In this document: positions 4,243-46,322 of the stretch, in pieces | How the letters are laid out: each line of letters starts with the position of its first letter | Numbering within the stretch: position 1 is the first letter of the stretch | UHGV virus genome: UHGV-0042229 | DNA length: 64,000 nucleotides | Origin: a virus | Direction: 5' to 3' (one strand) | Translations under genes and position numbers: made by a program | Notes under the pieces: generated by a model | Told to the model about the DNA's origin: nothing | The model's input: only the letters and a program-made list of their open reading frames with translations | Database searches by the model: none

Positions 4243-5727
4243 TTACTCATTAAGCCATGCCAGAGCTTCATCAACCTGCGCTTCGTCTTCGACGCTAAGC
4301 ACTTCATCCTGGGGAACATAATCCGCCAGCATAGCGAAACAATATGTATCCCAATGGTCTGGTGAGTGCAGGTTGAGTTTTTTCTTCATATCCTCCTTAC
4401 TCATCACCTTCCATTGACCTGCGGAGTTAATCCCTACAGGGATTTTCGACGCTTCCTCAATAGTTTCATTACCCTTATCCAGTCTCATACGACCAGATTT
4501 TACGGCCTCTGCGGCTTGAACGTTGGCATAAGCACGTTTATCAAAGTACAGGCTCTTATCTTCACGGCTATGCATCTTTTTACCCCAGCGTATACGCTGT
4601 ACGGTAATACCATAATACTCGTACATCAGATCCGCCGTTGCTTTACCCAGGCCATCGCCGTCTATCGCTATGGTGATATTTGGGAATCGCTCAGGATTAC
4701 ATTCTGCGAAAATTTTGGCGGCAAGCTGCGTTTCTGTAACGTCTGTGTATTCCAGCATTCGATAGTTGATTACACGGCGTTTATTTCGCTGGCCGGACAC
4801 CATCATGATATTGATAACGGACTTATCCCGTCCCGTACCACCAGCAACGTCCACACATGCAAGCCAGCCCCATCCTTTTGCAATCTTGACTTTCCGCCGC
4901 GTTGCACGTTCAACCTCATCACGTCCAAGAAGGAAGCCATCCTGTGATTTAGGGAATAGGCCGCGTACCTTAATCATGTACATAGGGTTATCGCGCCCGC
5001 CGTACTCCGCCAGCTTCATTTTGATAAATGCTGGCGTTACCAGCGGTGATTCCTCACTGTTAAGCGTGATCGCCGTATAAACGCCATCAGGGTTACCAGG
5101 ACGCTTGGCCAGTTTATGGTGTGTATCGTAGAAATAGCCGCTTGGGCGTGTAGGCTGTGACAGCAATAAGATGCGGTTATCCTGTCCGGTAAGAGCACCG
5201 GTGATGATACCGAAAGCTCTATCACTGACACCGGAGGCTTCATCGATAATATACAGAAGATGATCTGCGTGTTCACCGGCGAGAGCTTCTTCACTTCCCA
5301 GACGAAAGCCCTTCGGTACTACAGTCCATACACCTTTACCAGTAACCTCATAGAAAGCGGTTTCTGTCAGAACAAAATAATCAGCAAGCCATGGAAAACG
5401 GCTGGTGGCAGTAGCCCAGTTTATCTTGATGTACTTGAATATACCGGTCATTACCTGCTGAATTTTGTTCGCAACGATAATGGCTCGGGCACCGGGATAC
5501 ATGATTATGAACAACATGATCATGATAGAAGTCATGTCTGATTTCCCGGTACCGTGGCCAGACGAAACAGATGTCTTGCTACCCTGTTCCTGCACAGACT
5601 CAATAATCAGATCCTGCTGCCAGGTAGGTGTTTTGCCGAACAAAACATCAGCGGCCGCAATCCAGTCATAACGATATAGCGCCACCAGCTCGCGCCAACG
5701 TGGATCCGTTACGCAACTTCTGGCCAT
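4243..5727 (-). CDS. pacB: Terminase large subunit PacB (494 aa)
   Basis: 494-aa ORF immediately downstream of and overlapping pacA; size and position as P1 pacB. Confidence 0.9.
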
Positions 5728-6920
5728 TAATCATCATCCCCGTATAGCTTGCGGGTAACTTCTTCGTCTTCCTCCTCGTCTTCGTCCAGGTCTTGTTCCA
5801 GCCATGGTTCGTTTGATACACCTTCAGTATCAACATCTCCATAACCGCCTGTATCAACGATATCGGCGATTTCTTCCCTACGCTGCTCAATCCACAATGC
5901 GGCATCGGCGCGGCGGTTGGCGGCCCGTTCTCGCGCAACTTTGTCCAGATCTTCAAGAGAAGGGCCACCGACGGCTGTTTGCCTTTCCTCATCATCGGTA
6001 TTGGTCTTCGGAGCACGCAGATCGGCTTTGATTTGCTCCAGCATCAGGGGCGGCACTTTCCCGCCATGCGCCTCGATGAATTCAGCTGCTTCCAGCACTG
6101 ACCAGTTATTTTCACGCTTTCGTTCGTATGCCAGCTTAACAATGCCAGCTTGCCCCATAGACAAAGCGTGCTTTTCCGCCTCCCGGCTTTCTTTTCGATA
6201 GTTATTCCGGATGCTGTAAATGGTGTTGATCAGGCTGCTTATCTGCGCGGAACAGCTGTTTAGCATGCTCGCGATACGATATTCAGGCGGAGTCCCTTCA
6301 TCATCGTCTTTTTGCTGATCGCGCATTTCCTGCACCAGACGAATACACGTATCCCTGGCATTCTCCAGCATAAGGAGATGAGAAAGAGACTTTTCCAGAA
6401 GAGTGGTTTCCAGAACATCGGCCCCGGACCGACGCAACATAGCGCGCGCGGCCTTCCGCGCTTCAACGTTATCTATCAGGTAATCGCCAGCTTCGAATTC
6501 AAAGCGTTCACCATCATCATCCAGGGTGTCGCGTTCCAGGCGATCACGTAAGGTCCGGTGGGCGCGGGTGATCACGTCATGATCATCAGAACGATCATTT
6601 ATGCGCTTATTTTGGCGCTTCGCATTCTCGACTGCGGCACTGACAACGGCATTAACCCTTTGTTTTTCCGCTATTTCAGCCGCAATGTGATCACCTGCAT
6701 GTTGATCATTAGAGTGATCAATGATCATGCTTTTTAGTGGCTTCCTGACTGGCTTATTTGGCTTGCGGCTGTCCGCTGTCCTGGTGTCTTCTTTGAAGGC
6801 ACGGAGATAACGACGTGCAGTATTAGGGTTAAGATTAAACTCGGCGGCATACTGTGCGATGGTGTAACCACCATCTCGCGCCAGGCGAGCAAAATTCTTC
6901 TTGTGATCGTCCCAGGTCAC
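5727..6920 (-). CDS. pacA: Terminase small subunit / pac-recognition protein PacA (397 aa, GTG start)
   Basis: 397-aa ORF with acidic C-terminus; contains the pac hexamer clusters near its 5' end; AAGGAAG RBS upstream of GTG. Confidence 0.9.
6569..6727. other. pac: pac packaging site (Dam-methylatable TGATCA/G hexamer clusters) inside pacA
   Basis: Four TGATCA at 6688-6693, 6703-6708, 6715-6720, 6722-6727; opposite cluster TGATCA 6569-6574, TGATCA 6580-6585, CGATCA 6592-6597. Matches the 4+3 hexamer architecture of P1 pac. Confidence 0.7.
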
Positions 6921-6955
6921 TTATGCTTCCTTTCGTAAAAACTCTTTTTGACGCG

Positions 6956-6978
6956 AGGGTAACGAAAGTCACATGTCA
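6956..6978 (-). promoter_or_regulatory. Late-promoter-like motif upstream of pacA
   Basis: Minus strand reads tgacatgtgac-tttcgt-TACCCT: same box...GTGAC, 6-nt spacer, TANNNT arrangement as the three plus-strand sites; about 30 nt upstream of pacA start. Confidence 0.45.
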
Positions 6979-7005
6979 AAAGGCCCGGAACGGGCAAGCA
7001 ATCAA

Positions 7006-7458
7006 TCAGATACGTGCGGATGTGGCATTACCGTAATGACGGTGCTGACGGGCCACCTTATTGAAAAGTTGACGCGCCATTACCCAAGGCTGGTGCTCCC
7101 GGCGTTCCTTTTCGTCCTGCGTCATATAGAGTTCGTTCTGGAGTTTTTCATCAAACCGGCGCGGAGCGCGGCTACGGCGAAAGAATTCAGGATTCAGAGA
7201 GTGGATCTGAAATCTACGTGGGCGTGTACTGTCATCAATCAAAACAGACGAATACTTAGACACAGCGATAGCCTTTAAGCGCAGATAAACATCGCGCTTA
7301 TCGACATCCAGATGCGGGTATTCCTTTTCAAGAATTGCTGCGAGTTCTTTCGCTGATAGAAGAGATTTAGTGCGGATCATGTAATCCGCAATCTCGTACG
7401 ATGTTATTCGTGAGTGATTTATTTCCATGAAGTGGCGTCCCTGCCAGTTAAGTAACAT
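7006..7458 (-). CDS. lpa: Late promoter activator Lpa-like protein (150 aa)
   Basis: 150-aa ORF immediately upstream of pacA in P1 gene order, preceded by a C1 operator-like site. Confidence 0.6.
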   Translation of the reverse strand: MLLNWQGRHFMEINHSRITSYEIADYMIRTKSLLSAKELAAILEKEYPHLDVDKRDVYLRLKAIAVSKYSSVLIDDSTRPRRFQIHSLNPEFFRRSRAPRRFDEKLQNELYMTQDEKERREHQPWVMARQLFNKVARQHRHYGNATSARI

Positions 7459-34574: not shown

Positions 34575-35476
34575 TGCTTAGCCTCTCCGCCAAGGGCATT
34601 TACCAGAGCATCAACCAGGCACGAAATTTCACTGGTTAACAGGAAGAAATCTGCGTCCAGTCGCTGCGCAACATCTTCACTATCAATATCAGAGTTCTGC
34701 TCAAGCAATTCATCCGCAAATTTGACGCTGGTAAGGCTGAAGTTATGGTCCAGTGTAAATTTAATGCGGTTCTGCCAGTCGAGTGCCAACTTAGTGACGA
34801 GCTTGCCAGCTTCCAGGTGTGTGGAAATTTCATCGCTTCCCAAATCCTGCTTTTTCACTCGGGCAATACCGCCATCCTCAAGCACTGCCTTAAGTTCTGC
34901 CGCATCCCCCATTTGAAATCCCTGTGGAGCACTACCATCACGTACCCAGTCGGTCAGCGTTAATTCAATGGGATTTTCAACACTCAGGGGAACAACAGGA
35001 AGAGAACCAAGAGACTTACGCATAAGCGCGAGCATATCCTCTGCCTGCCGCGCGCTGGCATTGATATAGATACGTTTAGTTGAACCGTCGTAGATCGCCT
35101 GGATAACAGAAAACTTTGAAAAAGCCCGTGGCAGAAGAGAATGCAGAACTTCGTCTTTCAGGGAGTCCTTCTCTGTTTTCTTCAGTTTACGCGCTTGTTC
35201 TTGCTCAAGTTTTTCAATTTTTTCTTGAATAGCTCGCTGGATAACCGGCGGGGGAAGAATTTTTGTTTCGCGCTTTGCTTCAACAAGGATAAAACCATTT
35301 CCATGCATAGCGATAACTTCGGAATTATCACCAAATGGCGATACAAAACCGAACTTGGCCATATCCTGACTACCGCATGGCGTGAAAAGGATCATTTTCT
35401 TTTTATCTTCTAAGTCGGTCAGATCCGCCTCACGAGAAAGTTTATAAATAGTAATGTTTTTCCAGTGCTTAAACAT
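34571..35476 (-). CDS. RdgC-like recombination-associated protein (302 aa from ATG at 35476)
   Basis: [17 protein letters not shown]...[17 protein letters not shown]...[27 protein letters not shown]... resembles E. coli RdgC; position matches P1 hrdC upstream of dmt. Track ORF extends upstream to 35590. Confidence 0.8.
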
Positions 35477-35825
35477 GTTGTAACCCTTGAATATCAACCA
35501 CAGAAAGCTCGTCTTTGTAGAAAAAGGCCAGGTTGTGGCACCCCCTCGTTTGAGCGTATGAGCTGGGACCAATTTCGTTCTTCCAGACAAATGGCTTCAA
35601 ATCCGTACGGCGAAGCATAAAAACGCGATTTGTTCCGCTCTGATTCCCAATGAGGCAAAAGCCTTCTTTCACCTTGATAGCCTGCAAGTTGTCGAGTTCA
35701 CCGCTGGTTACACGGCTATCGAACTCCTTGCGGCTTATTAGCTCCATCTGCATCTGACGACTCCAAACAAATGCCCATTGAAGGGCGATGGCTGAATGGT
35801 ACCGAAAATACGACATAAAAAACAA
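35469..35825 (-). CDS. Hypothetical protein (up to 118 aa) between operator and rdgC-like gene
   Basis: ORF track; start uncertain (several in-frame Met). Confidence 0.4.
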
Positions 35826-35841
35826 TATTTATTAGAGCAAT
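35825..35841 (-). promoter_or_regulatory. C1 operator-like site upstream of the rdgC-dmt operon
   Basis: atatttattagagcaat, 16/17 to reverse-complement consensus. Confidence 0.6.
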
Positions 35842-35922
35842 TTTGCAATAGTTGAACTCCATGTAGACCACAAACAACCTGAGTTAAAATAACGAAAATC
35901 AGAGCAAATAATTGGTGATAAC

Positions 35923-36207
35923 GTGGCAAGTATTGCAACAAAAGACAGCATTTGTTCGGGGCACGGAGGATTCCCATCCAGGCCTCCTGTAGAGAGTGAA
36001 GCACTACTTAAAGTCAACGGAGTCGAAGTGTTAGTTGATGGTAAGCAATATGCACAGCATACCGATGGAAACAGTACGCACGGTGGGCAAGCTATATCAA
36101 CCAGGGCATGGTTTACCGTCAATGGTAAAGGGATCGTATGCGTTGGTGACCCTGTTTCATGCGGATCTACCGTAGCGTCCGGAGACGGCCTGGTTCAGGT
36201 AAGTTAG
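35923..36207 (+). CDS. PAAR-like protein (94 aa, GTG start)
   Basis: Repeated xHGG / GD motifs (CSGHGGF..., THGGQAIS..., VCVGDPVSCGS...) typical of PAAR spike-tip proteins. Confidence 0.45.
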   Translation: MASIATKDSICSGHGGFPSRPPVESEALLKVNGVEVLVDGKQYAQHTDGNSTHGGQAISTRAWFTVNGKGIVCVGDPVSCGSTVASGDGLVQVS

Positions 36208-36215
36208 GAGATATC

Positions 36216-37004
36216 ATGCTGGAAAAAGACTACCAGTTATCCGCATATAAAAAATTGGCCGCCGCCGGTGGGATGAAAACACCTGGTGCCATAACATCGG
36301 CACGAAACAGTGCTAACACAGCAAAACTGCTTGCAGAAGAATTGACCGGATTAATTCTGGATACAATTGTCTATCCCGACACTATTACCAGCTATGTTTC
36401 AACGATCAGAACAACCACAACCGGCTTAACGAACATTGGAGAACTGGCAACTAAGCACGCGGACCTGTTGGCTGGTTATGCAGATCTGTCAATGCTGCTT
36501 CAACTCGATATTGGTTGGGATGTTTACTGCCGTGCTAATGAGCGAGAAGTATCAGAACTGCCGATCTCTATTGCCATTGGTGACGCGACTACAACGAAAT
36601 CGCTTGAGGACGCTGTAAATGCGCTTAATGCGTCGAGTTTAGTCGCTGCTATGGGTGACGTTAACCAGACCCTTAACACAGGCTCAGGAAGCTCGTCAGG
36701 CTCTGATTCAGGTGGCGGCGCAGTCACTCCCCCACCAGCACTGACAGAACAACAAGTTGAAGCACTGAAGGAAGCTACTGAACAATTTGGTGCTTTTTTC
36801 GACCAGACAACAGTACCGGTAGCAGCATTGCAACAGCAGTATGAACGAGCGAAGGAAAGCGCCAGCGTAGCCATAACTGCTTATAACCATGCTATCGGAA
36901 CCGCGCTGGCGGAAGCATCAGCAAATAAGGCCAGCACCGCCAGCGCAGTCGCAGCTTTGGTTCCTGATTCTGTTCTTGATGAATTAAACAAGGCGACACT
37001 TTAA
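36216..37004 (+). CDS. Hypothetical protein (262 aa from ATG with AGGAG RBS)
   Basis: Track ORF 36159-37004 trimmed to MLEKDYQL...; Ser/Gly-rich linker, Ala-rich C-terminus. Confidence 0.5.
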   Translation: MLEKDYQLSAYKKLAAAGGMKTPGAITSARNSANTAKLLAEELTGLILDTIVYPDTITSYVSTIRTTTTGLTNIGELATKHADLLAGYADLSMLLQLDIGWDVYCRANEREVSELPISIAIGDATTTKSLEDAVNALNASSLVAAMGDVNQTLNTGSGSSSGSDSGGGAVTPPPALTEQQVEALKEATEQFGAFFDQTTVPVAALQQQYERAKESASVAITAYNHAIGTALAEASANKASTASAVAALVPDSVLDELNKATL

Positions 37005-37043
37005 CAAAGGACTTCACAGATAATTTTTCTTCAGGAGGAAGAA

Positions 37044-37466
37044 ATGTCGTTTTTTTCAACGTTAAAAACAGCTTTGTCTTTGAAGGAGAAACTTGCTGTT
37101 ACTGGTGTTCTTGTCCTGATTTGCGCACTTGTTGGTGCTGGGTTTGCATGGGAACGTTATCAGTTAAAGCAAGCCTTGGAAAAAATTGGCAGCCTTGATC
37201 AGGCTGTTAAGGAGCGCGATAAGTCAATCATTGATCTTAACCAGACCATTGAGACGATGAATAAAGCGGATCAACATTTTCACAGCCAGGAAGTGAAAAA
37301 TGAATCAGAACAAGCGAAGTATGCAGACAGACAAATGGAACGAAAAGCTGAAGTTCAGAAACAACTGGTTGCGTCGGGTAGTGTTCGCCAGCGCATTCCT
37401 GTTGACACTCAGCGGTTGCTCCGGGAGTCGATCAGCGAATTTAACGCCGACGCCGACAAAGGTTAA
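37044..37466 (+). CDS. i-spanin-like protein (140 aa): N-terminal TM helix plus coiled-coil
   Basis: TM LAVTGVLVLICALVGAGFAW followed by charged coiled-coil region; 3' end overlapped out of frame by a lipoprotein ORF. Confidence 0.45.
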   Translation: MSFFSTLKTALSLKEKLAVTGVLVLICALVGAGFAWERYQLKQALEKIGSLDQAVKERDKSIIDLNQTIETMNKADQHFHSQEVKNESEQAKYADRQMERKAEVQKQLVASGSVRQRIPVDTQRLLRESISEFNADADKG

Positions 37467-37632
37467 TCACCCTGCCCCCAAAAGTGCATTTATGTGCAGG
37501 ATGCCAGAGTTTAGCAGTGAATATTTTGATGATCTGCCAGCCTATATCCTTGATACAGAAACGATGCTGATGGGGATTAACAGGAAGAATCGCAACGTTA
37601 ATGATTACAACCGCGCTATCAGCGGTAACTAA
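37300..37632 (+). CDS. o-spanin-like lipoprotein, overlapping the i-spanin-like gene (start uncertain)
   Basis: Signal peptide with lipobox LLTLSGC, mature part Pro/Thr-rich; overlaps 37044-37466 in the +1 frame. Confidence 0.4.
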   Translation: MNQNKRSMQTDKWNEKLKFRNNWLRRVVFASAFLLTLSGCSGSRSANLTPTPTKVNHPAPKSAFMCRMPEFSSEYFDDLPAYILDTETMLMGINRKNRNVNDYNRAISGN

Positions 37633-37643
37633 AAGGGATTTTT

Positions 37644-38036
37644 ATGTCTGATAAAGTAACAGTAAAGCAAACTATCAACAAAGCGACTTCAATCTACAAA
37701 ATTGAGCAAATCACTGTTGGCAAGCCAGGATCTGAACAATACCGTCGTGCTTTCGAGCTTGCCGATCAGCTTGGTTTAAAACACCCGGATTGCATTGAGC
37801 ATGTATTTCCGACCTATGCTGATGAGCAATGTACTCATGTTCTTACCGAAGAGGATTTTTTCTGCACTGAAGAACGAGAAGGAGTTGATCGCTGCATTGG
37901 TGTGATTTGCTCTTCAGTGAGTTATGAGTTATTCCCTAATGTCCATGAAGATGGTGGTGTTGGATACCAATTCCTGTACGAAGGCGATGAGCTTAAATGT
38001 TATGAACATGGTCTTCTTATCGAAAGCGTAGAATAA
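37644..38036 (+). CDS. Hypothetical protein (130 aa)
   Basis: ORF track; followed by hairpin aaccggc/gccggtt at 38050-38070. Confidence 0.5.
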   Translation: MSDKVTVKQTINKATSIYKIEQITVGKPGSEQYRRAFELADQLGLKHPDCIEHVFPTYADEQCTHVLTEEDFFCTEEREGVDRCIGVICSSVSYELFPNVHEDGGVGYQFLYEGDELKCYEHGLLIESVE

Positions 38037-38078
38037 TACCCTTCCTTCCAACCGGCTATGTTGGCCGGTTTATTCAAC

Positions 38079-38186
38079 TTATCCACAGCATAGATCCAAT
38101 AAACAGATCCTAAAGAGAACCTAGGAAGATCCAAAGAAGATCCCGGATCGCTGTAAGCCGCGTCATTACTGGCCTGAAATGGGATC
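38079..38186. other. oriR: Plasmid origin oriR core: DnaA box plus GATC cluster
   Basis: Perfect DnaA box TTATCCACA at 38079-38087; six GATC at 38093, 38106, 38128, 38139, 38146, 38183 (four as AGATCC); directly upstream of iterons and repA. Confidence 0.65.
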
Positions 38187-38190
38187 AACA

Positions 38191-38294
38191 TTGACTATAC
38201 GCGATTTTATGTTGACTGTGCACGATTTATTGTTGACTGCACGCGATTTATTGTTGACTATACGCGACAGAAACATTGACTGTAAGCGATTTTA
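38191..38294 (+). repeat. Five direct iterons (origin-proximal array, incC-like)
   Basis: Starts 38191, 38212, 38233, 38254, 38276 (21-22 bp period): TTGACTATACGCGA, TTGACTGTGCACGA, TTGACTGCACGCGA, TTGACTATACGCGA, TTGACTGTAAGCGA. Confidence 0.8.
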
Positions 38295-38370
38295 GAGTCT
38301 GAATATTCACAGCTGTTGATAACAGCCATCCAAATTGACGTCAGGCCGCGCCACACATGGAGAAACCGTG

Positions 38371-39255
38371 ATGCCGGAAGAAAGTAAAGGCTTCCTTAGC
38401 GTTGAAGAAGTTGCAGGAAATACAGGAGAAATCCACAGCCTGAAGCCCAATAACAACAGCACTATACAACCCATCGCTTTGTTGCGCTTAGGTGTGTTTG
38501 TGCCAACCTTAAAATCTACCAATGTGGCGCTACGTCGCGGATCGTCAGTTACAACAAACACAACGAACGCAACTGAAGAACTATCAAGCCTCAAAATTGT
38601 TGAGCAGGAAGGCTATGAGGGAATTGAAATTCATGGTCCACGCCTGGATATGGATACTGATTTTAAGGTGTGGGTGGGCATAACCTCCGCGTTGTTTGAC
38701 TACGCACCTGATGATGACGGCATAATCACCCTGCCATTCTCCGAGTTTGCCGATCGATGCGGCTATCCACGTAAGCGCCTTTCAAAGGCGTTCCGTAAAA
38801 GTATTGATGACTCTCTGACACGCATTCAGCAGACAGTTGTCAAATTCCGCTTCCCGGCGGCAAAAGGTCATCTCAATAACATTAACGTCAACTTGTTGGC
38901 ATATAGCAGCCTGAATACCGAGCTTGATGTTATCGAGATCCAGCCGCAGAAACAGCTATCTGAACTTTACTATGTTGACTATAAGCGAATCCTGAAGCTG
39001 AAGATGCTGGATAAACTAGGGCGCAAAGAGACGGCCAAGGTACTGTATACATTCTTTGAGGCTCTACCCGCCAACCCGGCACCTGTCAGCATTGAGCGCC
39101 TTAGAGCGAGGCTTAATCTCAAATCATCCGTTAGCGTGCAAAATAGCGTTATCAGAAAAGCCATGAAAGATTTGGAAGCTATTGAATATCTTAAATTTTC
39201 AGAGATAAAAAACGGCAGGAAAATCGGCTTCCAGATCCATAAGCGCAATCCATAA
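38371..39255 (+). CDS. repA: Replication initiator RepA (iteron-binding)
   Basis: From ATG at 38371 with GGAG RBS; shares blocks with my recollection of P1 RepA (TIQPIALLRLGVFVP, GPRLDMDTDFKVWVG, VLYTFFEALPANPAPVSIERLRARL) but overall diverged; flanked by iteron arrays. Confidence 0.85.
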   Translation: MPEESKGFLSVEEVAGNTGEIHSLKPNNNSTIQPIALLRLGVFVPTLKSTNVALRRGSSVTTNTTNATEELSSLKIVEQEGYEGIEIHGPRLDMDTDFKVWVGITSALFDYAPDDDGIITLPFSEFADRCGYPRKRLSKAFRKSIDDSLTRIQQTVVKFRFPAAKGHLNNINVNLLAYSSLNTELDVIEIQPQKQLSELYYVDYKRILKLKMLDKLGRKETAKVLYTFFEALPANPAPVSIERLRARLNLKSSVSVQNSVIRKAMKDLEAIEYLKFSEIKNGRKIGFQIHKRNP

Positions 39256-39257
39256 TA

Positions 39258-39512
39258 TTGACTATATGCGATAGCGAGAAGTTGACTATAGGCGACATTC
39301 GTTGACGCTGGTGGATTTTTGCTGGCGTCAATATTCTGCAAGTCGCTATTGAGATGGCTTTTAGGGGCATTTCATCGCGTATAGTCAACGTTTCTCCCGA
39401 CAATATCTTACATAGTCGATCTTTGGTGGAGTTAAATCGACTACAGTCAACTTTTGACTGTAGTCACATCGCGCATAGTCAACTATTCACATTAACCTTC
39501 GCGCATAGTCAA
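39258..39512. repeat. Iteron array downstream of repA (incA-like), both orientations
   Basis: About nine copies of TTGACTAT(A/G)(T/G)GCGA / TCGCG(C/T)ATAGTCAA, e.g. 39258, 39282, 39376 (rev), 39437 (rev), 39454, 39471 (rev), 39501 (rev). Confidence 0.75.
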
Positions 39513-39547
39513 CATTTGCGCGGTTCTCATCAAGCAGTGGTATTGAT

Positions 39548-40357
39548 ATGCAAGAAGAGAAACAACACTACCTCTACGTTCTGGTGCCAGAGAACGGAGA
39601 TACTTTTAAAATCGGCATTTCATGTGGTCCATTGGCACGGTTTAAAGGGCTACAAGTGAGTCCCGATTTTGCGCTTTCACGGGTCTATCGTGGTACGCGT
39701 TTGGTAATGGTTAATCTTGAGCGGGCTTTACACGCAACCTTTTTCCCCTGGAATGCGCCGTGGGAGAAAAGCGTCGGTGGCGGGCATACTGAATGGTTTA
39801 CACGAGAGTGTCTTGATAAGGTTTTGGCTCATATCGAATATCTAAATGATATGTGGGGAGGGATTCTCGAGCGCATTAAGTCGAATGATTTACTTCAGCG
39901 TCCAGTAGATGCTGCTTGCTCTTTCGAAAAAGAGCTGGATGTTACTTCTATCGTGACTTTCAAAGATGACGCAGGAATGAGGGACGTGGCTTATGTCTCC
40001 ATATCTGGCTATGAACCGGACGCGATCCGCGCTCAATGTGAATTGCTGAAAGCAATGTTTATGCTTCGGACTAAATATCCCTGGGATACAGGGCGGGTGT
40101 GCTTCCCTATGGAAGAGTTAACCGCCACCATTGATTCCCAGCTTTACCACGATAATCCAGAGAAGTTTTTTAGCCTTTTAGCCGGTAATGGGCTTAACTG
40201 TGTGTCCGGGCTGGGGCGAAGTAGAATCCAACATGCCTCGCTCTTCGGTCCCTTCTTTTACGATCGACACGGGTACTTTGAGGCTGAACTTCCGGCGCTT
40301 ACGCGTGCTATAGATACTATCGATTTCGAACGATTATTCGCTGCTCTTAGCAAATAA
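39548..40357 (+). CDS. T5orf172 (GIY-YIG-like) domain protein (269 aa)
   Basis: N-terminal HYLYVLVPENGDTFKIGIS...RFKGLQV...GGGHTEWF pattern of the T5orf172 domain; about 170 aa C-terminal region of unknown function; own terminator. Confidence 0.6.
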   Translation: MQEEKQHYLYVLVPENGDTFKIGISCGPLARFKGLQVSPDFALSRVYRGTRLVMVNLERALHATFFPWNAPWEKSVGGGHTEWFTRECLDKVLAHIEYLNDMWGGILERIKSNDLLQRPVDAACSFEKELDVTSIVTFKDDAGMRDVAYVSISGYEPDAIRAQCELLKAMFMLRTKYPWDTGRVCFPMEELTATIDSQLYHDNPEKFFSLLAGNGLNCVSGLGRSRIQHASLFGPFFYDRHGYFEAELPALTRAIDTIDFERLFAALSK

Positions 40358-40364
40358 CACTGAT

Positions 40365-40385
40365 GCCCCTGAACGGGGCTTTTTT
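40365..40385 (+). terminator. Rho-independent terminator after the T5orf172 gene
   Basis: gcccc-tgaac-ggggc followed by T6. Confidence 0.75.
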
Positions 40386-40469
40386 GTGCCCTCCTTGTAA
40401 CTCTCAATCGTGCAAAATGAACCAAACATGCAGAGAATGCTATGTACAAGCATCTACGCATACATTATT

Positions 40470-40515
40470 ATTTTATGCAGCATTTTTAATTAAATTCAAA
40501 AATACAGCATAAAGG
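40470..40515 (+). promoter_or_regulatory. Putative par promoter/operator (imperfect inverted repeat)
   Basis: ttttatgcagcattttt-aattaaattc-aaaaatacagcataaa directly upstream of parA. Confidence 0.4.
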
Positions 40516-40525
40516 ATGACTTTCG

Positions 40526-41722
40526 ATGAGTGATTCCAGCCAGCTTCACAAGGTTGCTCAAAGAGCAAATAGAATGCTCAATGTTCTGACTGAACAAGTA
40601 CAGTTGCAAAAGGATGAGCTACACGCGAACGAGTTTTACCAGGTCTATGCGAAAGCGGCACTGGCAAAATTGCCTCTACTGACTCGTGCGAACGTTGACT
40701 ATGCCGTAAGTGAAATGGAAGAAAAGGGTTATGTTTTCGATAAACGCCCTGCTGGCTCTTCAATGAAATATGCGATGTCAATTCAGAACATCATTGACAT
40801 ATATGAACATCGCGGAGTGCCAAAATACCGGGATCGCTACAGCGAAGCGTATGTGATTTTCATCTCCAATCTTAAAGGCGGTGTGTCAAAAACTGTATCG
40901 ACGGTTTCTCTGGCGCATGCAATGCGTGCCCACCCTCATCTTCTGATGGAAGATTTAAGGATTCTGGTTATTGACCTTGATCCGCAATCTTCAGCAACGA
41001 TGTTTTTAAGCCATAAACACTCTATTGGTATCGTAAACGCAACATCTGCACAGGCTATGTTGCAGAATGTAAGCCGTGAAGAGCTGTTAGAGGAGTTTAT
41101 TGTTCCTTCTGTTGTACCTGGGGTTGACGTTATGCCTGCGTCGATTGACGATGCCTTTATTGCATCCGATTGGAGAGAGCTGTGCAATGAGCATCTACCG
41201 GGTCAGAACATCCATGCTGTCCTGAAAGAGAATGTGATTGATAAGCTGAAGAGCGATTATGACTTTATCCTCGTTGATAGTGGTCCTCACCTTGACGCCT
41301 TCCTGAAAAATGCTTTGGCCTCGGCCAATATACTGTTTACACCTCTGCCGCCTGCAACGGTTGATTTCCACTCATCGCTTAAATACGTTGCCCGCCTTCC
41401 TGAGTTGGTGAAACTCATTTCGGATGAAGGCTGCGAGTGTCAGCTTGCAACTAACATTGGTTTTATGTCCAAGTTGAGTAACAAGGCAGACCATAAGTAT
41501 TGCCATAGCCTGGCTAAAGAAGTGTTCGGTGGGGATATGCTTGATGTTGTCCTCCCTCGCCTTGACGGTTTTGAACGCTGCGGCGAGTCTTTTGACACTG
41601 TTATTTCAGCTAACCCGGCAACGTATGTTGGTAGTGCTGATGCATTGAAGAACGCGCGAATTGCTGCGGAAGATTTTGCTAAAGCAGTTTTTGACCGTAT
41701 TGAATTTATCAGATCTAACTGA
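40526..41722 (+). CDS. parA: Partition ATPase ParA (398 aa)
   Basis: Starts MSDSSQLHKVAQRANRMLNVLTEQVQLQKDELHANEFYQVYAKAAL...; Walker A ISNLKGGVSKT; recognised as P1 ParA. Confidence 0.95.
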   Translation: MSDSSQLHKVAQRANRMLNVLTEQVQLQKDELHANEFYQVYAKAALAKLPLLTRANVDYAVSEMEEKGYVFDKRPAGSSMKYAMSIQNIIDIYEHRGVPKYRDRYSEAYVIFISNLKGGVSKTVSTVSLAHAMRAHPHLLMEDLRILVIDLDPQSSATMFLSHKHSIGIVNATSAQAMLQNVSREELLEEFIVPSVVPGVDVMPASIDDAFIASDWRELCNEHLPGQNIHAVLKENVIDKLKSDYDFILVDSGPHLDAFLKNALASANILFTPLPPATVDFHSSLKYVARLPELVKLISDEGCECQLATNIGFMSKLSNKADHKYCHSLAKEVFGGDMLDVVLPRLDGFERCGESFDTVISANPATYVGSADALKNARIAAEDFAKAVFDRIEFIRSN

Positions 41723-41738
41723 GGAGTAAGAAACCCCC

Positions 41739-42740
41739 ATGTCAAAGAAAAACAGACCAACAATTGGGCGAACCCTTAATCCTTCAATATTAAGCGGATT
41801 TGATAGTTCTTCAGCCTCTGGCGATCGAGTCGAGCAGGTATTCAAGTTATCAACTGGTCGCCAGGCCACATTTATTGAAGAGGTAATACCTCCGAACCAG
41901 GTAGAAAGCGATACCTTTGTTGATCAGCATAACAACGGGCGTGACCAGGCATCTCTTACGCCAAAATCATTAAAAAGTATCCGAAGCACTATTAAGCATC
42001 AGCAATTTTACCCTGCAATAGGTGTCAGACGGGCTACAGGGAAAATTGAAATTTTGGATGGTTCCCGGCGTCGAGCTTCTGCCATCTTAGAGAACGTAGG
42101 GTTGCGGGTTTTAGTCACGGACCAGGAGATCAGCGTTCAGGAAGCGCAAAATTTAGCGAAAGACGTTCAGACAGCATTGCAGCACAGCATTCGAGAAATA
42201 GGTCTGCGTTTGATGCGAATGAAAAATGATGGGATGAGTCAGAAGGATATTGCAGCCAAAGAAGGGCTGTCTCAGGCGAAGGTCACGCGTGCTCTCCAGG
42301 CAGCGAGTGCTCCGGAAGAATTAGTCGCCCTTTTCCCTGTGCAGTCGGAATTAACCTTTTCGGACTACAAAACGCTTTGTGCTGTTGGCGACGAAATGGG
42401 GAACAAGAATTTAGAGTTTGATCAGCTTATTCAAAACATATCCCCGGAAATAAACGACATCTTATCCATTGAAGAAATGGCCGAAGATGAAGTTAAAAAT
42501 AAAATCCTGCGCTTGATAACAAAGGAAGCCTCACTACTCACGGATAAAGGTTCTAAAGATAAGTCCGTAGTTACTGAATTATGGAAATTTGAGGACAAGG
42601 ATCGCTTTGCAAGGAAGCGCGTGAAAGGCCGTGCATTTTCTTATGAGTTTAATCGACTTTCAAAAGAGCTACAGGAAGAACTCGACAGGATGATTGGGCA
42701 TATCCTTAGAAAGAGCCTCGATAAAAAGCCGAAGCCTTAA
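41739..42740 (+). CDS. parB: Centromere-binding protein ParB (333 aa)
   Basis: 333-aa ORF downstream of parA followed by parS boxes. Confidence 0.93.
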   Translation: MSKKNRPTIGRTLNPSILSGFDSSSASGDRVEQVFKLSTGRQATFIEEVIPPNQVESDTFVDQHNNGRDQASLTPKSLKSIRSTIKHQQFYPAIGVRRATGKIEILDGSRRRASAILENVGLRVLVTDQEISVQEAQNLAKDVQTALQHSIREIGLRLMRMKNDGMSQKDIAAKEGLSQAKVTRALQAASAPEELVALFPVQSELTFSDYKTLCAVGDEMGNKNLEFDQLIQNISPEINDILSIEEMAEDEVKNKILRLITKEASLLTDKGSKDKSVVTELWKFEDKDRFARKRVKGRAFSYEFNRLSKELQEELDRMIGHILRKSLDKKPKP

Positions 42741-42743
42741 ACT

Positions 42744-42830
42744 TTCGCCATTTAAATTTCACTATTAACCTACTGTTTTTAAAGTAAATCCCTCTAAAAT
42801 TTCAAGGTGAAATCGCCACGATTTCACCTT
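42744..42830. other. parS: parS centromere (boxA heptamers / boxB hexamers)
   Basis: TCGCCA at 42746 and 42813; ATTTCAC / ATTTCAA / inverted GTGAAAT at 42756, 42799, 42806, 42822 around an AT-rich IHF-like region. Confidence 0.7.
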
Positions 42831-42890
42831 GGATTTTACCTTCCTCCCCTACTCCCGAAAAAAATAAAAAAATTGCTTGTCACGAGAAAG

Positions 42891-42914
42891 TCAACAAGTG
42901 ACTTTCAATAAAAT
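42891..42914 (+). promoter_or_regulatory. Late-promoter-like motif upstream of the head/tail operon
   Basis: tcaacaagtgac-tttcaa-TAAAAT; box has internal inverted repeat aagtca/tgactt. Confidence 0.5.
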
Positions 42915-42965
42915 CTCTTCCGAAAAGGGATTCACACAAGTGCCTTGTGTTTAAGGAAGAGTAAA

Positions 42966-44672
42966 TTGAGTAACTTACGCGAATACCAGAATCGTATTGC
43001 AGATATCGCAAAACGCTCTAAAGCTGTGCTTGGCTGGGCAAGCACTGCGCAGTTCGGTACTGATAACCAATTCATTAAAGATGATGCCGCGCGTGCCGCA
43101 TCTATCCTTGAAGCTGCACGTAAAGACCCGGTTTTTGCGGGTATCTCTGATAATGCCACCGCTCAAATCGCTACAGCGTGGGCAAGTGCACTGGCTGACT
43201 ACGCCGCAGCACATAAATCTATGCCGCGTCCGGAAATTCTGGCCTCCTGCCACCAGACGCTGGAAAACTGCCTGATTGAGTCCACCCGCAATAGCATGGA
43301 TGCCACTAATAAAGCGATGCTGGAATCCGTCGCAGCAGAGATGATGAGCGTTTCTGACGGTGTTATGCGTCTGCCTTTATTCCTCGCGATGATCCTGCCT
43401 GTTCAGTTGGGGGCCGCTACCGCTGATGCGTGTACCTTCATTCCGGTTACGCGTGACCAGTCAGACATCTATGAAGTCTTTAACGTGGCAGGTTCCTCTT
43501 TTGGTTCTTATGCTGCTGGTGATGTTCTGGACATGCAATCCGTCGGGGTGTACAGCCAGTTACGCCGCCGCTATGTGCTGGTGGCAAGCTCCGATGGCAC
43601 CAGCAAAACCGCAACCTTCAAGATGGAAGACTTCGAAGGCCAGAATGTACCAATCCGAAAAGGTCGCACTAACATCTACGTTAACCGTATTAAGTCTGTT
43701 GTTGATAACGGTTCCGGCAGCCTACTTCACTCGTTTACTAATGCTGCTGGTGAGCAAATCACTGTTACCTGCTCTCTGAACTACAACATTGGTCAGATTG
43801 CCCTGTCGTTCTCCAAAGCGCCGGATAAAGGCACTGAGATCGCAATTGAGACGGAAATCAATATTGAAGCCGCTCCTGAGCTGATCCCGCTGATCAACCA
43901 CGAAATGAAGAAATACACCCTGTTCCCAAGTCAGTTCGTTATCGCGGCTGAGCACACGGTACAGGCGGCGTATGAAGCACAGCGTGAATTTGGTCTGGAC
44001 CTGGGGTCCCTACAGTTCCGCACCCTGAAGGAATACCTGTCTCATGAACAGGATATGCTGCGTCTTCGCATCATGATCTGGCGCACTCTTGCGACCGACA
44101 CCTTTGACATCGCTCTGCCGGTTAACCAGTCCTTTGATGTATGGGCAACCATCATTCGTGGCAAATTCCAGACTGTATATCGCGACATTATTGAGCGCGT
44201 TAAATCTTCTGGTGCGATGGGGATGTTTGCTGGTGCTGATGCAGCATCTTTCTTCAAACAGTTGCCGAAGGATTTCTTCCAGCCAGCCGAAGACTATATC
44301 CAGACTCCGTATGTTCACTACATCGGTACCCTGTTCGGTAACGTGAAAGTGTACGAAGTACCTGCTGGTATTTGTAAGAACTTAACGACAGAGAACATTC
44401 AGTTCAGCTCGATGGATGTGCTGTGCTACGTCCGTGATGAAAATCCGGGTAAAGCAGGCTTCGTGACTGGTGATGCTGTCCCGGCCATCCCGTTCCAGCA
44501 TCCGACCACTCCGGCGCTGGTCAACCGTACCACGCTGTGGGGTTCGGCTATCAACGATATGCACCCACGCAACGGCGCTGATTACTTCACTCGTGTAACG
44601 CTGACAATGGCCAAAAAAGGCGGGCTTAACTTCATAAGCGGCGACACGATTGATGCCGGTGACTCTGAGTAA
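42966..44672 (+). CDS. Putative major head protein, gene 23-like (569 aa from TTG; track ORF starts at 42945)
   Basis: Large late ORF adjacent to parS as P1 gene 23; AGGAAG RBS 5 nt before TTG at 42966. Confidence 0.55.
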   Translation: MSNLREYQNRIADIAKRSKAVLGWASTAQFGTDNQFIKDDAARAASILEAARKDPVFAGISDNATAQIATAWASALADYAAAHKSMPRPEILASCHQTLENCLIESTRNSMDATNKAMLESVAAEMMSVSDGVMRLPLFLAMILPVQLGAATADACTFIPVTRDQSDIYEVFNVAGSSFGSYAAGDVLDMQSVGVYSQLRRRYVLVASSDGTSKTATFKMEDFEGQNVPIRKGRTNIYVNRIKSVVDNGSGSLLHSFTNAAGEQITVTCSLNYNIGQIALSFSKAPDKGTEIAIETEINIEAAPELIPLINHEMKKYTLFPSQFVIAAEHTVQAAYEAQREFGLDLGSLQFRTLKEYLSHEQDMLRLRIMIWRTLATDTFDIALPVNQSFDVWATIIRGKFQTVYRDIIERVKSSGAMGMFAGADAASFFKQLPKDFFQPAEDYIQTPYVHYIGTLFGNVKVYEVPAGICKNLTTENIQFSSMDVLCYVRDENPGKAGFVTGDAVPAIPFQHPTTPALVNRTTLWGSAINDMHPRNGADYFTRVTLTMAKKGGLNFISGDTIDAGDSE

Positions 44673-44732
44673 TCAGGGGAAGTTCTCCGTTTAACATAGC
44701 GCCCCCGTGCGGGGCGCATAACAGGGAAAGTT

Positions 44733-46322
44733 ATGTCTCAATATTCAATTCAACAGTCATTAGGTAATGCATCCGGCGTCGCGGTTAGCCCGATCAATGC
44801 CGATGCGACGTTATCTACCGGTGTTGCATTAAATAGCAGCTTGTGGGCTGGTATTGGCGTATTTGCGCGTGGCAAGCCGTTTACTGTTCTGGCGGTTACT
44901 GAGTCCAATTACGAAGATGTTCTCGGCGAACCGCTGAAGCCGTCTTCCGGCTCACAGTTCGAACCAATTCGTCATGTGTACGAAGCTATTCAGCAAACGT
45001 CTGGTTATGTTGTTCGTGCTGTTCCGGATGATGCGAAGTTCCCGATTATTATGTTCGATGAATCAGGCGAACCGGCTTACAGTGCGTTGCCATACGGTTC
45101 TGAAATTGAACTTGATAGTGGCGAAGCCTTTGCTATCTACGTTGATGATGGTGATCCGTGTATTTCACCTACCCGTGAGTTAACCATCGAAACGGCAACA
45201 GCGGATAGCGCGGGTAATGAACGCTTCCTCTTAAAACTGACCCAGACGACTTCGCTCGGCGTGGTAACGACCCTGGAGACACACACTGTATCTTTGGCGG
45301 AAGAAGCGAAAGATGACATGGGCCGCTTGTGTTATCTGCCTACGGCTCTGGAAGCCCGTTCTAAATATCTGCGCGCGGTTGTTAATGAAGAGCTGATTTC
45401 GACGGCGAAAGTAACAAATAAAAAATCGCTGGCGTTCACTGGTGGTACCAACGGTGATCAGTCGAAAATCTCAACCGCTGCGTACCTACGTGCGGTTAAA
45501 GTGCTGAATAATGCGCCGTACATGTACACCGCTGTTCTTGGCCTGGGCTGCTATGACAATGCGGCTATCACCGCATTAGGTAAAATCTGTGCAGATCGCC
45601 TGATTGATGGCTTCTTTGATGTCAAACCGACATTGACGTACACGGAAGCGATCTCTGCTGTTGAAGATACCGGTTTACTTGGTACCGATTATGTAAGCTG
45701 TGCTGTCTATCACTTCCCGTTCTCCTGCAAAGACAAATGGACCCAATCCCGTGTGGTCTTCGGTCTGTCTGGCGCGGCGTATGCGGCGAAAGCTCGCGGC
45801 GTCAAGAAAAACTCTGATGTCGGCGGTTGGCATTACTCACCGGCTGGTGAAGAACGTGCCGTCATTGCTCGTGCGTCAATTCAACCGCTGTATCCGGAAG
45901 ATACCCCGGACGAAGAAGCAATGGTCAAGGGCCGTCTCAATAAAGTATCTGTTGGCACCTCTGGCCAGATGATCATCGACGATGCTTTAACTTGCTGCAC
46001 GCAGGATAACTATCTGCACTTCCAGCACGTCCCATCCCTGATGAATGCAATCAGCCGTTTCTTTGTCCAGTTAGCCCGACAGATGAAGCATAGCCCGGAC
46101 GGTATTACTGCGGCTGGCCTGACTAAAGGGATGACCAAACTTTTAGATCGCTTTGTCGCCTCCGGCGCTCTGGTGGCTCCTCGTGATCCTGATGCTGACG
46201 GTACAGAACCGTATGTGCTGAAAGTTACGCAGGCGGAATTCGATAAATGGGAAGTAGTCTGGGCCTGCTGCCCGACTGGCGTAGCCCGTCGTATCCAGGG
46301 CGTACCGCTGCTTATTAAGTAA
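44733..46322 (+). CDS. Putative tail sheath protein, gene 22-like (529 aa)
   Basis: Second large late ORF; size and position consistent with contractile-tail sheath; GC-rich hairpin 44699-44717 upstream. Confidence 0.5.
   Translation: MSQYSIQQSLGNASGVAVSPINADATLSTGVALNSSLWAGIGVFARGKPFTVLAVTESNYEDVLGEPLKPSSGSQFEPIRHVYEAIQQTSGYVVRAVPDDAKFPIIMFDESGEPAYSALPYGSEIELDSGEAFAIYVDDGDPCISPTRELTIETATADSAGNERFLLKLTQTTSLGVVTTLETHTVSLAEEAKDDMGRLCYLPTALEARSKYLRAVVNEELISTAKVTNKKSLAFTGGTNGDQSKISTAAYLRAVKVLNNAPYMYTAVLGLGCYDNAAITALGKICADRLIDGFFDVKPTLTYTEAISAVEDTGLLGTDYVSCAVYHFPFSCKDKWTQSRVVFGLSGAAYAAKARGVKKNSDVGGWHYSPAGEERAVIARASIQPLYPEDTPDEEAMVKGRLNKVSVGTSGQMIIDDALTCCTQDNYLHFQHVPSLMNAISRFFVQLARQMKHSPDGITAAGLTKGMTKLLDRFVASGALVAPRDPDADGTEPYVLKVTQAEFDKWEVVWACCPTGVARRIQGVPLLIK

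Follow-up and report, generated by a model that had tools for sequence, protein, structure and literature searches.

The stretch of DNA analysed here (the window) comprises 64,000 nucleotides of the virus genome UHGV-0042229, a P1-like phage-plasmid of the same type as SJ46, JL22 and RCS47. Identity to these elements over 39200-40600 is 99-100%, with 99.9% for SJ46 and JL22. Between the control iterons of its replicon and the partition operon lies an ATG-initiated open reading frame (ORF) of 269 amino acids (39548..40357, plus strand, stop codon at 40355-40357), exactly where a preliminary description of this DNA had placed it. The ORF encodes a GIY-YIG/T5orf172 nuclease, the activity of which is predicted from sequence, and closes an alternative replicon cassette of the p0111 type. 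Existing records annotate the product as a GIY-YIG nuclease family protein, and earlier literature mentions the gene without addressing its role: in phage JL22, 'repA' (p0111) and an unknown gene, gp57, were reported to replace repA (IncY) (PMC9603915), and nothing in the literature searched links a GIY-YIG/T5orf172 gene to p0111 or P1-like replicons. What appears to be new here is the systematic membership of the gene in P1-like replicon cassettes of several types, an acidic C-terminal domain with a modest likeness to the first winged helix (WH1) of Rep initiators, and the pattern of selection and decay of the gene.

A replicon cassette exchanged as a block

The cassette opens with five origin (incC-like) iterons, found by a repeat search, with a 21-bp spacing and the consensus TGTTGACTATACGCGA (38187..38294, plus strand). 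Next comes repA (38371..39255, plus strand), an 885-nt coding sequence for a Rep3-family initiator of the p0111 type (Pfam Rep3_C 27.1 bits, Rep3_N 21.8 bits), which is 42% identical to P1 RepA and whose product is annotated as a RepB/RepFIB-type initiator in about 400 plasmids. The repeat search also revealed two direct incA-like iterons right after the repA stop (39254..39300, plus strand) and four inverted ones (39375..39517, minus strand; TCGCGCATAGTCAAC on the plus strand), the last of which ends 31 bp before the ATG of the ORF. As the preliminary description had noted, the gene has its own intrinsic terminator (40365..40389, plus strand), GCCCC-TGAAC-GGGGC followed by T6, with an RNA fold of -11.9 kcal/mol and a z of -2.45. 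The terminator scan found none between repA and the ORF, and no consensus sigma-70 promoter was detected between the repA stop and the ATG. The simplest expression model would therefore be read-through from the autoregulated repA promoter. No Rfam family matched in 37500-41000.

Two details of repA may be mentioned. The annotated records use the ATG at 38371 (MPEESKG..., 885 nt), whereas the mechanical ORF starts at a TTG at 38335, so that the neighbourhood coordinates of the preliminary description may be affected. Within the coding sequence, an iteron-like 16-mer, TGTTGACTATAAGCGA (38973-38988), matches the iteron consensus at 94%.

In both the P1 replicon (oriR/incC-repA-incA) and the p0111 replicons of SJ46, RCS47 and JL22, origin iterons come first, then a Rep3-family RepA and control iterons, with parAB further downstream. 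Unlike the p0111 replicons, reference P1 has no coding sequence between repA/incA and parA, as the preliminary description had it, and neither blastn-short nor tblastn detected a remnant of the nuclease gene in its incA-Ppar spacer. The gene had been described as inserted between incA and parA of the P1 replicon, but this is not what the comparison with P1 (NC_005856) revealed. By blastn, window positions 35001-38173 are 95.7% and positions 40424-45000 99.2% identical to P1, and between these flanks nothing aligns except 59 bp at 76%. A p0111-type cassette of 2,250 bp (38174..40423) stands in for the 1,491-bp incC-repA-incA-spacer block of P1. Since the whole block was replaced, a solo insertion into P1 is rejected: the gene arrived with the entire rep cassette. 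The iterons upstream of the gene are of the TTGACTATACGCGA type and not, as in P1 incA, of the GATGTGTGCTGGAGGGA type, and thus belong to a different, p0111-type replicon. A foreign base composition was also considered for the ORF and rejected, as its guanine-plus-cytosine content of 0.473 is identical to the window value.

Upstream of the swap boundary, the left part of oriR (38100-38173), GATC-rich and containing the DnaA-box region, is P1-derived and was kept, so that the alternative cassette reuses the P1 origin-opening region with foreign iterons. On the other side, the P1 backbone resumes outside the cassette with the Ppar promoter (40443..40471, plus strand; TGTACA-17-TATTAT in the promoter scan, corresponding to the annotated P1 Ppar) and the parA-parB operon (40526..42740, plus strand; Pfam HTH_54/AAA_31 for parA, ParB), whose proteins are 100% identical to those of P1.

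In PLSDB, the gene is present in 401 records and the window-type repA in 408; the p0111 cassette with the gene was found in about 390 of the ~546 plasmids matching the region. The gene is thus a conserved component of one of the two P1-like replicon types, which agrees in part with what the preliminary description had envisaged as an alternative to cargo. An exhaustive profile search among 1.84 billion representatives gave 158 matches to the ORF, most of them covering just the N-terminal ~100 residues. Only three relatives are full-length (P0004, P0009 and P0011), and all three occupy the same slot of diverged P1-like elements, in the order RepA, control iterons, nuclease, parA-parB. Among the loci concerned, L003 has a p0111-type RepA, 84% identical to that of the window, L004 a P1/IncY-type RepA, 83% identical to that of P1, and L006 a third RepA type. 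Each has its own iteron family, and the layout of direct and inverted control iterons recurs in all three, each time with its own iteron type.

L003 (Logan ERR2144811) and L004/L005 (Salmonella GCA_007478465.1) represent a diverged P1-like lineage, with gp23 80% and ParB 67% identical to P1. Between L003 and L004 the backbones are 94-99% identical (ParA 100%), but the cassettes differ, p0111-like in one and IncY-like in the other, each with its own nuclease allele. The differing block (L003 6831-9019 versus L004 6656-8944) has the same edges as the swap between the window and P1: the left edge immediately precedes the first origin iteron, and the right one lies 63-84 bp past the nuclease stop. 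The coincidence of edges in two independent cassette swaps indicates that the unit of exchange consists of the origin iterons, repA, the control iterons and the nuclease gene. The nuclease gene marks the right boundary of this unit.

Beyond the terminator, the cassette ends in a non-coding stretch (40390..40423) which DNA alignment showed to be conserved and common to L006, a cassette that is otherwise very different, P1 homology resuming at 40424. Positions 40380-40423 of the window and about 6020-6070 of L006, just past the nuclease terminator, are ~70% identical. The nuclease proteins of the window and L006 are only 22-39% identical and the iteron types differ; this right-edge element is better conserved than the nuclease gene.

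Inside flanks that are 96-99% identical, the gene is missing from P1 and present in SJ46-type elements, but its presence was always coupled to a different repA/iteron set, and no presence/absence polymorphism independent of the cassette was seen. The other alleles are seldom met with: the P0009-type allele is absent from PLSDB and from IncY E. coli plasmids, and a scan of genome collections provided only one further close allele. Two other elements were encountered. The first, a phage-plasmid that is not P1-like (NZ_CP085065.1 72751-83606), has no nuclease gene, and its repA shares 77% identity with the p0111 type; downstream of repA it has about 480 bp of non-coding DNA, then tail genes. The second, pF1200-1 (OY842570.1, 17,067 bp), typed by PLSDB as IncHI1B, is a P1-like mini-derivative bounded by insertion sequences (IS), which keeps only upfA-repA-T5orf172-parAB and a few structural genes.

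A conserved catalytic core joined to a private C-terminal domain

The N-terminal domain of the protein (amino acids 1-105; 39548..39862, plus strand) is matched by Pfam T5orf172 (PF10544) over residues 8-85, with 26.5 bits (E 9.5e-6) for a gathering cut-off of 20 bits, and the assignment made in the preliminary description is upheld. The Pfam profile search gave no match to the GIY-YIG model PF01541, and no NCBIfam model matches the ORF. Among PHROGs, phrog_2876 (unknown function) matches the full length and phrog_681 ('endonuclease') the N-terminus. The domain has the GIY-YIG alpha/beta fold, and Y10, K21, G23, R31, E58, H62, G79 and E82, which are invariant or at least 90% conserved across 143 relatives, are all present in the window protein; they include the tyrosine, arginine and metal-binding glutamate of the catalytic core (Y10, R31, E82).

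A first AlphaFold2 model from three sequences was set aside as too poor, with a predicted local distance difference test score (pLDDT) of 57.6. The structure prediction that the preliminary description had called for was obtained from an alignment of four sequences, which gave a usable two-domain model (pLDDT 72.8). In it, the catalytic domain is followed by a low-confidence linker (amino acids 106-127; 39863..39928, plus strand), disordered at residues 115-127 where pLDDT is below 50, and by a C-terminal domain (amino acids 128-269 plus stop; 39929..40357, plus strand). The latter, previously described as uncharacterised, indeed has no sequence match in Pfam, NCBIfam or the PDB, and its sequence relatives are confined to the four-member family. 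In the model it is a winged helix, for which WH1 domains of Rep initiators are the best matches in two independent programs, at modest scores; with Foldseek, the top matches were Rep-initiator WH1 families, with E values of only 0.025-1. The likeness thus concerns the predicted fold. At E up to 1, the ORF has no Pfam match to Rep3_N or Rep3_C, whereas the adjacent RepA does. Aligning the C-terminal domain by hhalign with the local RepAs and with the Rep3 parts of fusion proteins gave probabilities of 0.1-0.3%, a negative result of little weight, because the positive control (fusion Rep3 versus local RepA) failed too.

The C-terminal domain is acidic in all four homologues (isoelectric point 4.6-5.1), as is the whole protein, whereas the RepAs are basic (9.3-9.5). 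This argues against simple DNA binding and leaves room for docking onto RepA. In Rep3 initiators, WH1 of RepA is the dimerisation domain. None of the DNA-binding modules known from homing endonuclease genes (HEGs), namely Zn finger, CapR, NUMOD and helix-turn-helix, was detected in the ORF.

Fast evolution and recurrent loss

Comparison of the window with L003 gives identities of 84% for RepA and 89% for ParA, against only 44% for the nuclease (64% in the N-terminal domain, 33% in the C-terminal domain). Selection was analysed on 45 close loci from IMG/VR and GTDB. The ratio of non-synonymous to synonymous polymorphism (pN/pS) was 0.021 for repA, 0.002 for parA and 0.334 for the nuclease gene. 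The last value is significantly below neutral (p 3e-5) and far above those of repA and parA (Fisher p 2.5e-8 and 4e-11), on which constraint is 15-150 times stronger.

Seven loci have a premature stop, and three separate mutations account for them: SJ46 itself carries Q228*, a clade of five members carries S112*, and the third is W68*. In another locus (IMGVR_UViG_2645727563_000002, 5295-7057), an element of the IS200/IS605 family, with a TnpA Y1 transposase of about 144 amino acids and a TnpB of 392, lies in the T5orf172 gene, and the equivalent of window 39842-40070 was lost. Where the nuclease gene is disrupted, repA and parA are intact. Protein-database clusters of 111, 181 and 95-98 amino acids, with about 420 members versus 1,241 intact ones, agree with recurrent truncation. 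A cluster labelled partial (P0003) was dropped as evidence of decay, being a contig-end artefact; the real nonsense alleles are those seen at the DNA level. About 80% of the alleles are intact. The gene is thus functional in most carriers, and it is recurrently lost. It is dispensable for replication and maintenance, since alleles with a nonsense mutation or an IS are maintained in elements of full size, the functional phage SJ46 among them.

A proposed role in conflict between replicons, and its alternatives

Fast evolution, repeated inactivation, a C-terminal domain resembling Rep WH1 and the precedent of the nuclease Odn (see below) point to a function in conflict with competing replicons. 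We tentatively favour a two-domain, site-specific nuclease derived from a homing endonuclease, belonging to the P1-like replicon cassette and acting against rival replicons, a reading we regard as plausible, though short of probable. An intact T5orf172 domain, a private and fast-evolving Rep-like domain, a fixed place at the cassette edge, and weak constraint with decay all fit it. In this protein, a flexible linker would connect the T5orf172/GIY-YIG catalytic domain to a targeting domain with a Rep-WH1-like fold. Transcription would be weak, reaching the gene from the RepA-autoregulated repA promoter by read-through of the incA-like iterons. At the homologous locus of a competing P1-like replicon, the C-terminal domain would bring the nuclease either to DNA or, in view of its acidity, to a complex of RepA with iterons. 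The break made there would either eliminate the rival or be repaired from the nuclease-carrying element. Because rep cassettes of different types do not align, such repair would have to use the nearest shared homology, to the left of the origin iterons and, on the right, at Ppar, so that the whole cassette would be copied. The shared left part of oriR and Ppar are precisely where the observed swaps end, and whole-cassette repair would account for repA, the nuclease gene and both sets of iterons always moving as a single block that ends at the 3' end of the nuclease gene.

A more specific version, which we consider improbable, is that of a 'replicon weapon': an acidic mimic of RepA WH1 would dock on the RepA-iteron complexes or iterons of the rival, and the origin/control region would be cut. 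If true, plasmid incompatibility or exclusion would here take an active form based on a nuclease, break repair would convert the whole replication cassette of the rival, and the IncY/p0111 dimorphism of P1-like elements would be accounted for. More generally, a nuclease acting on rivals would provide a mechanism for block-wise cassette exchange, for the coexistence of two replicon types and for phage-plasmid displacement. P1-like phage-plasmids are widespread carriers of extended-spectrum beta-lactamase and mcr genes, and a replicon-directed nuclease would be relevant to incompatibility typing and to the curing or displacement of resistance plasmids.

The preliminary description had proposed single-gene defence or exclusion cargo. 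Exclusion survives in modified form, as action on competing replicons. Classic anti-phage defence, in which a stand-alone nuclease degrades incoming DNA of unrelated phages and linkage to the replicon is incidental, is possible but in our opinion unlikely. The nuclease domain does come from a superfamily used in defence, fast evolution and frequent loss are seen in many defence genes, and the carrier is a temperate phage-plasmid in which the gene has its own terminator. However, none of the known anti-phage families in PADLOC-DB v2 matches the ORF at E up to 1, no partner or sensor gene accompanies it, and the gene came with the rep cassette. The same gene family is found in the same slot of four different rep cassettes, and not in a hotspot with changing content, and both the Rep-like C-terminal domain and the existence of Rep3 fusions suggest that replicons are what it acts on. 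A role as an accessory of replication control is somewhat less likely still: the WH1-like domain would dock on the cognate RepA or iterons and modulate initiation, handcuffing or copy number, the protein being a nickase or a non-cutting binder. Weighing on this side is the short distance, 20-35 bp in every cassette type, between the last control iteron and the start of the ORF. Co-transcription with repA is probable, the allele is inherited with the RepA type, and an acidic WH1-like domain could pair with a basic RepA. We nevertheless disfavour this explanation because the gene is dispensable: disrupted alleles persist, reference P1 and the 77%-related p0111-like replicon work without it, and its constraint is far weaker than that of repA or parA.

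Comparably doubtful is a purely selfish HEG or decaying relic, of no benefit to the element, which would persist through past homing and linkage to repA. Repeated pseudogenisation and a high pN/pS speak for it, as do the position at a recombination boundary and the fact that T5orf172 HEGs are common in phages (PMC10448857). Yet pN/pS, at 0.36 in the comparison with neutrality, is significantly below neutral, most alleles are intact, and both domains are conserved across homologues that are only 18-44% identical; moreover, this explanation overlaps with the one we favour instead of excluding it. If nothing but a decaying selfish nuclease were involved, the case would be a tidy but ordinary HEG at a module boundary. 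Finally, T5orf172-derived proteins can be domesticated, as with the PLE repressor CapR (bioRxiv 10.1101/2020.11.28.402263), and the gene lies directly upstream of Ppar. A non-cutting, CapR-like regulator acting on Ppar or on the iterons seems very improbable to us, since the core GIY-YIG residues Y10, R31 and E82 are kept; the whole protein is acidic, and the P1 par operon is, according to its annotation, already autoregulated by ParA/ParB.

The conflict nuclease that we favour can be compared with known systems. Free-standing GIY-YIG/T5orf172 HEGs, such as the T4 Seg proteins, those with the I-TevI architecture and the HEGs of ICP1, join a catalytic domain, a linker and a targeting domain, an arrangement that the window protein, with its putative targeting domain, would match. 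Like the window gene, they lie between genes, beside essential ones and at the border of exchanged blocks, evolve rapidly and decay repeatedly. In ICP1, T5orf172 HEGs bracket exchanged modules and 'HEG islands' (PMC10448857). Unlike them, the window gene has no known HEG DNA-binding module, and with no polymorphism independent of the cassette it is not demonstrably a classical HEG.

Also among the closest characterised systems is Odn (origin-directed nuclease), in which a T5orf172 domain is fused to a domain derived from RepA and which cuts the origin iterons of a rival (PMC8263062). Related proteins with T5orf172 and RepA_N are ICP1 gp5 and those of coliphages Inny, Muut and Mt1B1_P17 (PMC8263062; PMC10448857). 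The structure of Odn (ICP1 gp88/ORF88) was retrieved by the structure model of the ORF, at rank 44. In both cases, a T5orf172 domain is joined to a domain resembling the origin-binding domain of an initiator, in a setting of modular RepA/origin swapping. The targeting domain of Odn, however, is N-terminal, of the RepA_N family and similar in sequence to the RepA of its target, whereas that of the window protein is C-terminal and acidic, and resembles Rep3 WH1 in fold only. An Odn-type targeting domain, with sequence homology to an initiator, was not found in the ORF, which has no Pfam Rep3 or RepA_N match, hhalign being of low power here. Odn is carried by a lytic phage and directed against a satellite, the window gene resides within the replicon cassette of a plasmid-prophage beside its own iterons. 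Lacking RepA_N and sequence similarity to an initiator, with a reversed domain order and encoded inside a replicon, the window protein does not belong to the Odn family in the strict sense. Should competing replicons indeed be its target, it would represent a plasmid-encoded counterpart of Odn, which is encoded by a phage.

Among the nearest relatives of the N-terminal domain, no partner domains recur other than Rep3_N/Rep3_C (4 of 143). A general association between this T5orf172 subclade and genes for plasmid replication was looked for with P0155, P0163 and P0157 and was not found. P0051, P0120 and P0018 are uncharacterised metagenomic proteins in which an N-terminal T5orf172 domain precedes a complete Rep3 initiator (WH1 and the second winged helix, WH2). 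They share with the window protein the N-domain subclade and the domain order, P0051 and P0120 being complete T5orf172-WH1-WH2 fusions. They differ from it in having a bona fide WH1 and WH2, with Pfam Rep3_N/Rep3_C matches, where the window protein has a single WH-like domain that Pfam does not match. These three proteins may be Rep3-based analogues of Odn.
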